From a virus (taxonomy: Duplodnaviria; Caudoviricetes), in IMG/VR virus record IMGVR_UViG_2615840613_000003, positions 26,210-90,209 of that record: a stretch of DNA of 64,000 nucleotides; one strand, written 5' to 3'. Shown piece after piece: positions 36,211-39,398 of the stretch. The translations under genes and the position numbers were made by a program. The first letter of the stretch is position 1. Every line of letters starts with the position of its first letter. Below the pieces are notes generated by a model that worked only from the letters and a program-made list of their open reading frames with translations, ran no database searches and was not told where the DNA came from.

Positions 36211-37245
36211 ATGGCTGAGCAGGACGATCTCATCGCGTCCATCGCAGCGACGACGGCCGACTATCGTGAGGCTGATGGGGAAGCCCCGACGCCAGAGCGT
36301 ATCGAGCGTTGGGTCGGTCAGTTCGACGCGGCAGTTCAGCTGCCCATTCTACGGGAAATGGATCACGTCTTGAAGCGGACCTACTTCTCCCGCGATGGAA
36401 CGAGAAAGTTTTTGGCGGGACTATTTCAGACCGAAAAGCTTGTCGGCGAGGATCCATGTGCCTTCTGGAAGGGCGTGAAGTTCCTCGACATTCAGGGCGG
36501 CGGCGCGAGCCAGAAGGAGATGCTCGCGCTGTTCAGCAAGGTGCTGGAGAAGCAGTGTCGGTTCGAAGCTGCCGACTGCGGCGCAGCTCCCCACGCCTTC
36601 GTGTATCTGGATGACGCCATCTTCACCGGGAACCGTGTTAGGCGCGATCTCGAAACATGGATCGCTGAGCAGGCTCCGGCCGAAGCGAAGGTGCACGTCA
36701 TCACGATCGCGCTGCATAGCGGCGGCCAGTACTACGCCAATGGAAAAATCAAGGAGGCGGCAAGGGCCGCCGGAAAGTCAATCGACCTGACGTGGTGGCG
36801 CGCGATTGAGCTTGAGGACCGCAGGGCTCACACCACTACGTCCGATGTTCTACGGCCGGTCGCGATTCCAGACGACGAGGGCGTGAAAGCCTATGTCGGG
36901 GCAATGCGCTATCAGCCCAATCTGCGCACTGCGGGCCATGTCGGCGGAAACGGTATCTTCTCCAGCGATGCTGGACGCCAGCTACTGGAATCGGAGTTCC
37001 TGAAGGCGGGCGTGCGCATCCGGCAGATGTGCCCGCATCTAAACCAGTACCAGCGGCCGCTGGGCAACATGATCCTTGAAACGCTCGGTTTCGGCTCGCT
37101 GATCGTAACCTTCAGAAACTGCCCCAACAATGCGCCGCTGGCGCTGTGGGCGGGGGACCCTTGGTACCCGCTCTTCCCCCGCACAACGAACAGCGATACG
37201 TCGCTGCGCAGGTTCATGGCGATGCTGGCACAGGAAGACTTCTGA
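36211..37245 (+). CDS. Phosphoribosyltransferase-like protein (conflict-system PRTase type)
   Basis: PRPP-loop-like FVYLDDAIFTGN; C-terminal LGFG..NCPNN.P..LW...WYPLFPR; GGAG RBS before ATG 36211. Confidence 0.7.
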   Translation: MAEQDDLIASIAATTADYREADGEAPTPERIERWVGQFDAAVQLPILREMDHVLKRTYFSRDGTRKFLAGLFQTEKLVGEDPCAFWKGVKFLDIQGGGASQKEMLALFSKVLEKQCRFEAADCGAAPHAFVYLDDAIFTGNRVRRDLETWIAEQAPAEAKVHVITIALHSGGQYYANGKIKEAARAAGKSIDLTWWRAIELEDRRAHTTTSDVLRPVAIPDDEGVKAYVGAMRYQPNLRTAGHVGGNGIFSSDAGRQLLESEFLKAGVRIRQMCPHLNQYQRPLGNMILETLGFGSLIVTFRNCPNNAPLALWAGDPWYPLFPRTTNSDTSLRRFMAMLAQEDF

Positions 37246-39398
37246 TGGCCCAGCCCAGCCAGGTTCGCACATACCACCCAGCCGAGAGCGCCGTCTTCCT
37301 TAAGACGAACGAGCGCTTTGGCGGGCTGTCGAACATGGCGCCGGGCTTCCCGATTGTCCTGAACGGCGTGCGGATCCGCACGTCGGAGGCGCTCTACCAG
37401 GCCTGCCGTTTCCCGCGCCGGCCGGACGTCCAGCGGCAGATCATCGACGACCCCAGCCCAATGACCGCAAAGATGCGGAGCAAGCCGTTCCGCTCCGACA
37501 CTCGGCCGGACTGGGATGCGGTGCGGGTGAAGATCATGCGCTGGTGCCTGCGCGTGAAACTGGCGCAGAACTGGCAGACCTTCGGCAAGCTGCTGCTGTC
37601 CACCGCGGACATGCCGATTGTCGAGAAGAAGGTCCGCCGCAAGGACTTCTGGGGCGCCACGGAGCAGCCGGACGGCACGCTCGTCGGCATGAACGTGCTG
37701 GGTCGCCTGCTGATGGAGCTGCGCGAGCAGCTGAAGGGCGATGAGGCGGAGAGCCTACGGTTTATCGAGCCGCTGGCCATTCCCGACTTCCTGCTGCTTG
37801 GAGAGCCCATCGAGGCCGTGCAGGCCCCGAATAATGCGCAGATTCCGGGTTGGGCCGCTCGGCGGTCGCCTGCACCCGTTGCCGCTCCGCCGCCCAGCGA
37901 TCCCCAGCCATCCCTATTTGAGCAGCCGATGATTACAAACGCGCAGCCTGCGCCCGTCTCATCTCCTCCTGATCGTCGCCGAGACAATCAAGAGCCGAAG
38001 CAGCAGCTTCTATGCCGCCCCTCGGGGCACGATTGGCTTGGCGATCTCCCAAGCCAATGGGATGTGCTCAGGAGCAAGTATCTATTTCGCGAGATCGACG
38101 ACCGGACCGACACGGGGACAGAAACATTGCTCTCCATGCGTCAAGCCCATGGCCTGATCCCCCACGCGAAGGTCTCAACCAAGCCAGTCACGCCGGAGGA
38201 ACTCAAGGGGTATAAGCGCGTCTGCACTGGTCAGATGGTAATGAACCGCATGCAGGCCTCGAACGGCATGTTTGCTGTGGCGCGTGAGGACGGCCTGGTC
38301 AGCCCGGACTACGCGGTGTTTCAGCCGCTGCGACCGATGGAACCGGACTACTTCGTCGAACTGTTCAAGACCAACATCTACCGCGCGAAATTTCGTCAAG
38401 AGTCAAAGGGGCTAGGAACTGGTACTTCTGGATTTCTGCGGCTCTACTCGGATCGTTTTGGATCAATCCATGTACCGCAACCACCGGAATCCGAGCAGCG
38501 GAAGATTGTACAGTTCATCCGAGCTTATGATGTTCGGGTTCGCCGCCTGATCCGCAACAAGCGGCGGCTGATCGGGCTGTTGAACGAGCAGAAGCAGGCG
38601 ATCATCAACCGGGCCGTCACGCGCGGCCTGAACCCCGACGCCCCGATGAAACCCACCGGCATCGACTGGATGCCCGAGGTTCCAGCGCATTGGGAGGTCA
38701 AACCGCTGAAGTGGTTCTTGACGGCAATTGTGGGCGGCTCAACCCCTCCAAGCGGTCAAGAAGACTGCTGGGACGGTGATATCGTATGGGTCACTCCTGA
38801 AGATATCAGCAGAAATGCTCGGCTATCGTCATCGAGGCGAACGATCACGCAGAAGGGATTGTCGGCTTGCTCTACATCGTTGGTCCCTCCAGGTAGCGTC
38901 GTTATCACCTCCCGGGCACCGGTTGGAAATGTTTCTATTGCGGAGGTGGAGCTTGCCACCAACCAAGGCTGCAAGGCACTTGTGCCAAACGCCGAGGCAA
39001 TCGATACCCAATTCCTGTTTGAATTGATGCGTATTCTTAAGCCAGAGCTGCAGAGCCTGGCGACTGGCACCACTTTTACAGAGATATCAACATCCCGATT
39101 GGGGCGCGTGAAAGTAGGAGCTCCGAGCGTCGCCGAGCAAAAAACGGTTATCGATTGGGTTCGCAATGAGACTCGCGACCTGGAGCGGGCAATCGAAAAA
39201 GCTGGTCAGGAAATAGCTCTCATCAATGAATACCGTGAGCGACTGATTGCCGACGTCGTTACCGGCAAGCTGGACGTGCGCCACATTGAGATCGTTGCAC
39301 CGGCAGACGAGCCGATTGCCGACGAGGATGACTCACTGGACGACGTGTTGGAAGACGGCGATGCCGAAGCGATGGAGGGGGCCGATGCCGACGACTGA
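37245..39398 (+). CDS. hsdS: NADAR (YbiA-like) domain fused to type I R-M specificity subunit S
   Basis: N-terminal LSN, SEALYQACRF, IVE, DFWG, GMNVLGRLLMELRE; Pro-rich linker; HsdS repeats SGHDWLGDLPSQW / TGIDWMPEVPAHW and P..EQ..I, AVTRG, VVTGK. Confidence 0.9.
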   Translation: MAQPSQVRTYHPAESAVFLKTNERFGGLSNMAPGFPIVLNGVRIRTSEALYQACRFPRRPDVQRQIIDDPSPMTAKMRSKPFRSDTRPDWDAVRVKIMRWCLRVKLAQNWQTFGKLLLSTADMPIVEKKVRRKDFWGATEQPDGTLVGMNVLGRLLMELREQLKGDEAESLRFIEPLAIPDFLLLGEPIEAVQAPNNAQIPGWAARRSPAPVAAPPPSDPQPSLFEQPMITNAQPAPVSSPPDRRRDNQEPKQQLLCRPSGHDWLGDLPSQWDVLRSKYLFREIDDRTDTGTETLLSMRQAHGLIPHAKVSTKPVTPEELKGYKRVCTGQMVMNRMQASNGMFAVAREDGLVSPDYAVFQPLRPMEPDYFVELFKTNIYRAKFRQESKGLGTGTSGFLRLYSDRFGSIHVPQPPESEQRKIVQFIRAYDVRVRRLIRNKRRLIGLLNEQKQAIINRAVTRGLNPDAPMKPTGIDWMPEVPAHWEVKPLKWFLTAIVGGSTPPSGQEDCWDGDIVWVTPEDISRNARLSSSRRTITQKGLSACSTSLVPPGSVVITSRAPVGNVSIAEVELATNQGCKALVPNAEAIDTQFLFELMRILKPELQSLATGTTFTEISTSRLGRVKVGAPSVAEQKTVIDWVRNETRDLERAIEKAGQEIALINEYRERLIADVVTGKLDVRHIEIVAPADEPIADEDDSLDDVLEDGDAEAMEGADADD

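Follow-up and report, generated by a model that had tools for sequence, protein, structure and literature searches.

A DS-32 phosphoribosyltransferase-NADAR pair embedded in a type I restriction-modification operon, with its NADAR fused in frame to HsdS

The viral DNA analyzed here is a stretch of 64,000 nucleotides (nt) from a member of the Caudoviricetes (IMG/VR record IMGVR_UViG_2615840613_000003, positions 26,210 to 90,209), referred to below in its full length as the window. It carries a type I restriction-modification (R-M) operon in which a phosphoribosyltransferase (PRTase) gene is followed by an open reading frame (ORF) that joins a NADAR domain to the HsdS specificity subunit with its two target recognition domains (TRDs). 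We identify the PRTase and the NADAR as the two components of the antiphage system DS-32, and we consider it nearly certain that this system is here both embedded in the operon and fused to one of its subunits. The genes of the operon and the parts of the fusion ORF are as follows.

32151-34370, + strand: hsdM, type I DNA methyltransferase; the ORF opens at GTG and its true start is uncertain
34373-36169, + strand: DUF262 gene, GmrSD-like (HEC-05/BrxU-like type IV restriction candidate)
36211-37245, + strand: DS-32A PRTase gene, ATG at 36211, 344 amino acids (aa)
37245-39398, + strand: DS-32B::HsdS fusion ORF, ATG at 37245, 717 aa
37245-37820, + strand: NADAR (YbiA-like N-glycosidase) domain with a conserved C-terminal extension, aa 1-192 of the fusion
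37821-38006, + strand: Pro-rich linker, predicted to be disordered, aa 193-254
37902-37928, + strand: short motif PQPSLFEQP inside the linker, the counterpart of the C-terminal tail motif in free-standing DS-32B
37935-38517, + strand: variable spacer and TRD1 of HsdS
38518-38711, + strand: central conserved region of HsdS
38712-39227, + strand: TRD2 of HsdS (variable)
39385-42357, + strand: hsdR, type I restriction and translocase subunit, ATG at 39385, overlapping the end of hsdS by 14 nt

Together, HsdM, the two-TRD HsdS and an HsdR with helicase and nuclease domains make up a type I R-M system encoded in one operon whose adjacent genes overlap or abut. An initial annotation, made from the letters of the DNA, had read the order as hsdM-DUF262-X-hsdS-hsdR, and all five genes were confirmed. 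HsdM matches Pfam N6_Mtase (E 1.1e-51) and HsdM_N (E 8.2e-24) as well as PADLOC MTase_I (PDLC03029, 846 bits), and its translation shows NPPY and S-adenosylmethionine (AdoMet) motifs. HsdR matches Pfam SWI2_SNF2, HSDR_N, ResIII and T1R_D3-like domains and TIGR00348 hsdR (E 1e-61). The DUF262 protein matches Pfam GmrSD_N (E 9.5e-30) and PADLOC HEC-05 (E 2.8e-33), and because its gene lies between hsdM and the PRTase gene, three defenses are stacked in the operon: type I R-M, a type IV-like enzyme and DS-32. The tight coupling of gene X, the PRTase gene, to the next ORF was likewise borne out. In TTCTGATGGCC the TGA of the PRTase gene and the ATG of the fusion ORF form a TGATG overlap in which one nucleotide (the A) is shared.

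The 344-aa PRTase matches Pfam PRTase-CE (PF24390, E 2.2e-58) and, over profile positions 1-322 of 322, the NCBIfam equivalog NF053875 DS32_1_antiphage at 424.4 bits against a cut-off of 250. Its phosphoribosyl pyrophosphate (PRPP) loop VYLDDAIFTGN, already recognized as such in the initial annotation, keeps Y132, D134, D135 and G140 invariant in 26 homologues, and PNNAP at aa 305-309 represents the PNNxP signature. That annotation had also proposed profile and structure searches, and these returned a PRTase fold for the one protein and a YbiA-like NADAR for the other. The AlphaFold2 (AF2) model of the PRTase has a predicted local distance difference test score (pLDDT) of 90.1. Its top VIA-align matches are uracil and purine PRTases, with root-mean-square deviations (rmsd) of 3.1-3.6 over 121-128 residues and Z values barely above the tool's 'middling' range: the uracil PRTases 1bd3 (Z 8.7, rmsd 3.2, 124 residues aligned), 1i5e (8.7) and 1vst (8.5), and XGHPRT 7kl6 (8.1). 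The Foldseek matches, headed by XGPRT 6kqc (E 7e-4), are weak (E ~1e-3) and interspersed with phosphoenolpyruvate carboxylase rows, and the fold call rests on VIA-align. As modeled, DS-32A of the window has a type I PRTase fold with a PRPP loop and a Rossmann-like core. PADLOC PRTase_III-A gave weak matches at aa 269-331, and Pfam found no DNA-binding domain in the protein. A single EF-hand match, returned by the PRTase profile in a sequence search of the PDB (E 9.6e-4), was taken as spurious.

At the head of the fusion ORF, Pfam NADAR matches aa 18-164 (74.8 bits, cut-off 35.1) and the equivalog NF053876 DS32_2_antiphage matches aa 8-189 over profile positions 1-181 of 181 (274.5 bits, cut-off 240). 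The signatures that the initial annotation had listed (a conserved E, IVE, DFWG and N.LG.LLM) correspond to this Pfam match and to residues that are invariant or nearly so across the 26 homologues, namely E48, I125-V126-E127, W136-G137 and N150/L152/G153/R154/L155. A profile of those homologues retrieves E. coli YbiA (2b3w) at E 3.9e-27 but the DarT1-type NADAR 8bau only at 1.2e-9. E48 aligns with E48 of YbiA and IVE127 with LVE125 of YbiA, and both are invariant in the 26 sequences. Judged by fold and by conserved catalytic residues, the window NADAR is a predicted member of the YbiA family, in which E127 would be the glutamate (as against aspartate or histidine) of the last strand.

There is no stop codon between the NADAR and the HsdS part, which has two Methylase_S stretches by Pfam and matches PADLOC Specificity_I over aa 259-681 (profile positions 12-440 of 448, E 1e-87). 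This nearly full-length match indicates a complete two-TRD HsdS, so that the reading of a NADAR running through a Pro-rich linker into a whole specificity subunit proved correct. The full-length AF2 model of the fusion is of low quality (pLDDT averages 63.7 and stays below 50 in the NADAR part, despite its strong profile match) and was used for the linker only, where pLDDT is below 50 over the low-complexity aa 194-254.

Because both proteins pass the NCBIfam DS32 equivalog cut-offs, the pair is DS-32 and is not new. The initial view of the two genes as a functional pair and a defense system thus agrees with DS-32, and the proposal of a new system falls, since DS-32 has been validated against phages in E. 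coli by DefensePredictor (bioRxiv 10.1101/2025.01.08.631726). That preprint likens DS-32B to the NADAR antitoxin of DarT-NADAR, describes DS-32A as unrelated to DarT and suggests that toxin-antitoxin partners were swapped (10.1101/2025.01.08.631726); the Science version of DefensePredictor, in the portion available, mentions only NADAR domains. The window and the E. coli system are alike in both equivalog matches, in the order of PRTase then NADAR and in their tight coupling. They differ in that the E. coli NADAR is a free-standing protein of ~203 aa encoded in a prophage, whereas the window NADAR forms the N-terminal domain of an HsdS of 717 aa, encoded between hsdM and hsdR. The window therefore represents a DS-32 variant, its NADAR being other than the small free-standing protein (profile length 181) that typifies the system. 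The initial annotation had also known of no described system with this architecture. That statement fails for the pair and holds for its setting, since our literature searches turned up neither a NADAR fused to HsdS or HmaB nor DS-32 inside an R-M or Hma operon, though such cases might appear in the supplements of DefensePredictor and of Payne et al. (Tables S3-8; the NADAR-containing PDC of Fig. 6E).

To place the pair in other genomes, we used two sets of loci. One genome per species was scanned for relatives of the PRTase, and the 80 best of the 122 obtained make up the first set; the second consists of the 80 best loci from a metagenome scan that used a NADAR protein as its seed. Both sets are the best matches to their queries, and the class proportions given below are not population frequencies. 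As the initial annotation would have it, the two genes co-occur elsewhere. A NADAR lies directly downstream of the PRTase in 80/80 genome loci, and a PRTase lies directly upstream of the NADAR in 77/80 metagenome loci (77/77 of those with upstream sequence), the other 3 having <220 nt of upstream contig. In records of Klebsiella and Bacillus cereus the PRTase is only ~30% identical, and the pairing is still kept. In E. coli the genes are annotated as 'phosphoribosyltransferase-like protein' and a 203-aa 'NADAR family protein', in that order, in a lambdoid prophage between replication and nin genes, with R-M genes not nearby; 62 of 5426 complete genomes show a partial DNA match. Two proteins, P0325 (540 aa) and P0342 (544 aa), hold PRTase and NADAR in a single chain, P0325 with a PRTase part at aa 1-344 (52% identical to the window PRTase) and a NADAR at 344-522. 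They provide a Rosetta-stone hint, from sequence, that the two proteins may act in physical association.

DS-32 is a rare system. NF053875 scored above its cut-off in 2 of 400 other sampled genomes of the phylum and in 0 of 13 of the same family. By tblastn the PRTase had 0 matches in 50,697 phage records, and its matches in 7 of 72,556 plasmid records were all below 60% identity. The PRTase of locus L045 (alignment over 4817-5827) is interrupted by 6 stop codons, and this decayed copy lies 950 nt from an intact NADAR.

The NADAR occurs in three main forms in the 160 loci: free-standing, HsdS-fused (69 uninterrupted) and HmaB-fused (18). An uninterrupted NADAR-HsdS ORF is present in 23/80 genome loci, while locus L010 has both parts in different frames and L004 stops 39 codons into the NADAR. 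The metagenome loci comprise 46 HsdS fusions, 9 HmaB fusions, 1 with an HsdR-C-terminus-like tail, 15 with a NADAR ORF of 320-335 aa, 7 with one of <=251 aa and 2 that run off the contig. The initial annotation had asked whether NADAR-HsdS fusions arise independently elsewhere, and they are plentiful. A NADAR search at fusion length (394-1255 aa) gave 1045 clusters, and 107 of the 120 listed carry PF08719 with PF01420, at ~690-725 aa. Their sources are many alphaproteobacteria, together with Accumulibacter, Myxococcota and Chloroflexi. The HsdS fusion is kept with HsdM partners whose identity ranges from 41% to 99%. By length, the 150 best NADAR representatives fall into 58 of <=300 aa, 58 of 301-599 aa, 31 of 600-760 aa and 3 of >=1000 aa; the 58 of middle length include single cases with HHH_3, HTH_17, HTH_11, DprA, DUF4365 and DUF488 and two with a tail that resembles the final 117 residues of the window HsdR (62% and 37% identity).

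The second recurrent fusion partner belongs to another restriction system. In 9/80 genome loci the NADAR ORF is 1021-1292 aa long (one is cut by the contig end), and all 6 that were scanned carry NADAR with DUF1156. At one of these, L026, PADLOC identifies the helicase HmaA (572.8 bits), the methylase HmaB (321.3 bits, in the C-terminal part of the fusion) and the ATPase HmaC (315 bits), which together make up the Hma system described by Payne et al.; the window itself has no Hma genes. The HmaB-fused NADARs sit between HmaA and HmaC, and in the genome loci a SNF2 helicase lies upstream in 9/9 and a DUF499 ATPase is present in 7/9. By eye, L071 appears to be HmaB-fused as well and cut at the contig end. 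From the HsdS and HmaB fusions taken together, the NADAR C terminus is joined to the N terminus of a methylation or recognition subunit in two unrelated restriction systems.

Several loci show further arrangements. In L026, an AAA_15 ATPase and UvrD-like helicase pair (6560-9936; Gabija/Septu-like) lies between HmaA and the PRTase, so this Hma operon holds two embedded modules, the pair and DS-32. L037 has its NADAR within a type I R-M operon as well, but the fusion partner there is an MNT-type nucleotidyltransferase domain (10975-11868; NTP_transf_2, E 1.4e-11) in place of HsdS. A clade of metagenome loci (L118, L119, L126, L128, L130, L136, L137, L139, L142-L144, L146, L147, L152 and L156) has NADAR ORFs of 320-335 aa, with a ~130-aa C-terminal extension that has no Pfam match and with PRTases 33-44% identical to that of the window. 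In P0290, P0241 and L089 (1155-2249), NADAR and linker are followed by ~115 residues homologous to the C terminus of the window HsdR (P0290, 62%, E 2e-45). P0290 has the HsdS-type motif LKPYP just ahead of the HsdR-like part, and for this reason the form may be a deletion remnant; alternatively, judging from sequence, the tail may be a way to dock on type I complexes. L089 has no R-M genes downstream.

Comparison with closely related cassettes shows how the fusion behaves when specificity changes. As far as 37932-37934, cassettes L002 and L014 share 93-98% DNA identity with the window (93-96% over NADAR and linker); beyond that point they match it only at 38518-38711 and from ~39220. Similarity is thus lost over the spacer and TRD1 and returns at 38518-38544, the central conserved block is 93-95% identical in L002, L014 and L018 in that block only, and TRD2, which contains the best Methylase_S stretch (aa 481-649), has no DNA similarity to any of the three. 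These breakpoints indicate that TRD1 and TRD2 have been swapped while NADAR and linker act as the conserved N-terminal region of HsdS. Contigs of two other metagenome runs span NADAR, linker and TRD1 with 0 gaps (1825 nt over 37000-38710 and 1269 nt over 37302-38570), and a hot-spring contig joins 37932 to 38544, matching the cassette breakpoint. Given the 1045 protein clusters and these gap-free independent contigs, the fusion is not an assembly artefact, and neither a strain-specific lost stop nor a sequencing error, the escape that the initial annotation had allowed for, accounts for it. Fourteen metagenome runs beyond the possible source contain about half of the sampled words of 36211-39398 (0.48-0.53 in X2-X14), which fits a conserved PRTase-NADAR with swapped TRDs; they come from compost, hot springs, sludge, wastewater and unlabelled habitats. 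The contig comparison covered four runs, and stretches without coverage in a run carry no meaning. The signal in an RNA library is a single 284-nt contig with 0 differences over 37585-37868, which could stem from carried-over DNA and does not count as a sign of expression. The L014 and window PRTases share only 77% identity at the protein level, against 100% for the NADAR and 99% each for HsdM and HsdR, which suggests allelic replacement of the PRTase alone.

The linker that is retained through these exchanges has a conserved core. HsdS fusions keep PQPSLF(E/D)QP, with P222, S223, F225 and P228 invariant in 21 of them, and most HmaB fusions have L[FW] at the motif site. In free-standing DS-32B the NADAR fold is followed by ~20-40 variable residues, and many of these proteins close on a hydrophobic motif (...DLF, ...AFL, ...RLL, SLFDQP). 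A tail pattern was found in 22/24 HsdS-fused (shuffles, 4.8), 6/9 HmaB-fused (1.4) and 28/41 free proteins (4.9); it was drawn up post hoc after viewing the sequences, and the excess over shuffles is only indicative. The tail motif is common to free and fused forms, so the whole of DS-32B, tail included, was set in front of HsdS or HmaB. The conserved tail may serve as a peptide for docking or regulation, with the PRTase as a possible partner.

How a PRTase and a NADAR might work together can be approached through better-known relatives of each. NADAR glycohydrolases also stand beside a ribosyl-transferring enzyme in DarT1-NADAR and YarT-YbiA, where they are the antidote; there the partner is an NAD-dependent ADP-ribosyltransferase (ART), whereas that in the window is a PRPP-type phosphoribosyltransferase. 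NADARs are mostly free-standing according to one paper, and YbiA is described as an N-glycosidase that cleaves riboflavin intermediates. These intermediates are N-ribosyl-5'-phosphates. On the PRTase side, PRTase-CE is the effector family of type III-A retrons, and the PRTases of retrons have a PRPP loop and PNNxP. In Retron-Eco11 the activated PRTase cuts PRPP by about half, and ShosT, another PRTase, is reported to disrupt purine metabolism. The window PRTase shares with that of Retron-Eco11 the Pfam family, the PNNxP signature and the PRPP loop, but it has no reverse transcriptase (RT) or winged helix-turn-helix partner, a NADAR stands in as regulator where the retron has RT-msDNA, and the glycine spacing of Gx14PNNxP differs. 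Membership among the retrons was rejected, as no RT domain was present in the 14 window ORFs scanned (24020-45415), where no search for a noncoding RNA was made.

For the coupling to R-M, a close parallel is PrrC of the Stp/EcoprrI case, an anticodon nuclease kept latent by the type Ic R-M enzyme EcoprrI. There too, the gene for an abortive-type effector lies inside the hsd operon (DS-32 with hsd, 23/80 genome and 46/80 metagenome loci), but PrrC is a tRNA nuclease toxin bound non-covalently, whereas the window has a PRTase and a NADAR of which the presumed antidote is covalently fused. PrrC is described by Payne et al. as almost exclusively embedded in type I R-M. The same text treats the embedding of defense genes in Hma, BREX, DISARM and type I R-M operons as known ('guilt by embedding'), and the mention of NADAR found in it is in a figure legend. 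Like the HEC and PDC candidates of Payne et al., DS-32 is embedded in type I R-M and Hma operons, and the window DUF262 gene matches HEC-05; their embedded genes are separate ORFs, whereas the window DS-32B shares one reading frame with a core subunit of the system that hosts it.

Taking these parallels together, we judge it slightly better than an even bet that DS-32 is here hard-wired to the restriction complex in a PrrC-like way, with a growth-arresting PRTase. The PRTase would be the effector, arresting growth by consuming PRPP and/or by making N-(5-phosphoribosyl) adducts, as suggested by what is reported for the Retron-Eco11 PRTase and ShosT. The YbiA-like NADAR would counteract it, either by hydrolyzing its N-glycosidic product or by binding the PRTase with the DS-32B tail. 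As that NADAR is covalently joined to the M2S core, whether the PRTase is held in check would depend on the state of the complex. An anti-restriction protein, or restriction that fails, would then unleash the PRTase as a second, abortive defense, in the manner of PrrC held by EcoprrI. The writer-eraser chemistry that the initial annotation proposed, and its idea of toxicity released by anti-restriction proteins, are both plausible. Strict pairing, covalent attachment, recurrence and upkeep through TRD exchange speak for this interpretation, and the case for physical coupling gains strength because the DS-32 NADAR is recurrently fused to modification or specificity subunits in at least two ways. 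That the fusion matters functionally in some way is moderately probable; the guard-and-trigger model specifically is a tentative proposal.

Several observations weigh against this interpretation. In 41/80 genome loci the NADAR ORF is <450 aa and without similarity to the R-M genes of the window, and clustering of neighboring ORFs found no conserved third gene in these 41 free-NADAR loci. DS-32 works free-standing in E. coli, so a link to R-M is not needed for defense as such. The Retron-Eco11 PRTase is not toxic when expressed alone, the available DefensePredictor text has no statement on toxicity of DS-32A, and any contact of the PRTase with either the NADAR or the R-M complex is putative. 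The substrate could also be a nucleic acid and not a metabolite, because YbiA-family NADARs strip ADP-ribose from DNA guanine. Finally, in a quick maximum-likelihood tree of concatenated PRTase and NADAR sequences (79 rows, L004 and L063 left out, no mixture model), 22/24 HsdS-fused rows fall in one clade (SH-aLRT 96), together with 11 free and 2 unfused-embedded forms, and much of the abundance of the fusion could for that reason reflect the spread of one successful cassette.

In a rival reading, DS-32 is autonomous and its fusion incidental: the pair landed in an hsd defense hotspot and lost a stop codon, and the neutral product was spread by horizontal transfer of the cassette. The concentration in one clade and the activity of free-standing DS-32 in E. 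coli agree with it. So do the frequent occurrence of independent defense genes embedded in type I R-M, BREX, DISARM and Hma operons, the GmrSD-like gene in this same operon (such a gene is present in 12/24 HsdS-fusion genome loci and 6/80 metagenome loci), and unfused NADARs within R-M operons (L037, L038 and L053; with L022, 4 genome loci have an unfused NADAR near type I genes). However, if the read-through were neutral, more frequent decay or reversion would be expected, and here the fusion survives both TRD exchange and the wide range of HsdM partners, an invariant motif is kept in the linker, and the NADAR is fused at the same end to the unrelated HmaB in another system. In addition, the well-supported branches of the tree require that the HsdS-fused and the HmaB-fused state each changed at least 3 times, gains and losses not being distinguishable. 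An incidental fusion is, on this evidence, unlikely.

A different function was also considered, in which the PRTase phosphoribosylates DNA bases as a writer and the NADAR removes the adduct as an eraser. The HsdS or HmaB fusion would bring the eraser to host DNA or tie it to methylation, so that only foreign DNA stays modified. NADARs, including those of the YbiA family, are described as hydrolyzing guanine-ADP-ribose on DNA and as antitoxins to DNA-modifying ARTs, and the fusion partners bind DNA (HsdS, HmaB and, in single cases among the 58 proteins of middle length, the domains listed above except DUF488). Yet characterized PRTase relatives act on small molecules (PRPP, and purine metabolism for ShosT), the fold matches of the PRTase are nucleobase PRTases, the protein lacks a DNA-binding domain by Pfam, and most DS-32B proteins have no DNA-binding partner. 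We regard such a DNA-directed writer and eraser as improbable.

The guard interpretation can be stated more broadly. Tentatively, DS-32B may be a modular adaptor-antidote whose NADAR head controls a PRPP-consuming suicide PRTase and whose C terminus is a plug that has been wired repeatedly to the methyltransferase cores of HsdS and HmaB systems; it may also have been wired to other DNA-binding modules and to the HsdR-C-terminus-like tail. If so, these complexes would be 'booby-trapped', with anti-restriction proteins or stalled restriction triggering a metabolic abortive infection, and restriction would be covalently coupled to abortive infection on a wide scale. DS-32 is a validated system, and to what is described of it we add that its NADAR has been fused repeatedly to specificity or methylase subunits of two unrelated restriction systems, that the fusion is kept while TRDs swap and that a short tail motif is common to free and fused forms. 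Recurrent fusion, upkeep through TRD swap and the shared tail offer a testable handle on how DS-32 is controlled, and suggest that backing up restriction with abortive infection may be a general way of defense. Defense-system finders are likely to miss embedded DS-32, because the fused protein is annotated as 'NADAR domain-containing protein' or 'type I restriction enzyme S subunit'. PADLOC v2 has no DS-32 model and none that matches the window NADAR; its PDC-M42C matches the NADAR of L026 (32 bits) and not that of the window.

Outside the coding sequences of the operon and upstream of it, the window holds these further features.

27923-29728: serine recombinase, upstream of the operon
30128-30964, - strand: NOV_C (DUF3883) nuclease-like protein, upstream of the operon
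31573-31791: HTH_17 excisionase-like ORF, upstream of the operon
42502-42517, + strand: terminator-like hairpin, 145 nt past hsdR; a consensus match only

The operon lies in an acquired island, as indicated by the drop in GC content from ~0.66 to 0.57-0.63 over roughly 31000-42500 and by the serine recombinase, NOV_C and HTH_17 genes upstream. The hairpin is the sole + strand terminator-like site after an operon stop codon, the other + strand site (33359-33373) lying inside hsdM. No sigma-70-like promoter was found across 31400-43000, where shuffles gave 2.6, and no tRNA was found within 20000-48000. The border stretch of the island (25708-31791) also carries an M78 peptidase regulator of the HTH/IrrE type. 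Downstream of the island GC returns to ~0.66-0.70, and 43077-48918 (- strand) holds a Peptidase_M15 gene, a 426-aa ORF without a Pfam match and a 1167-aa ORF. These genes, among which the M15 peptidase is the one that was domain-scanned, we take to resemble the tail or host-specificity genes of a prophage or of a gene-transfer-agent-like cluster.

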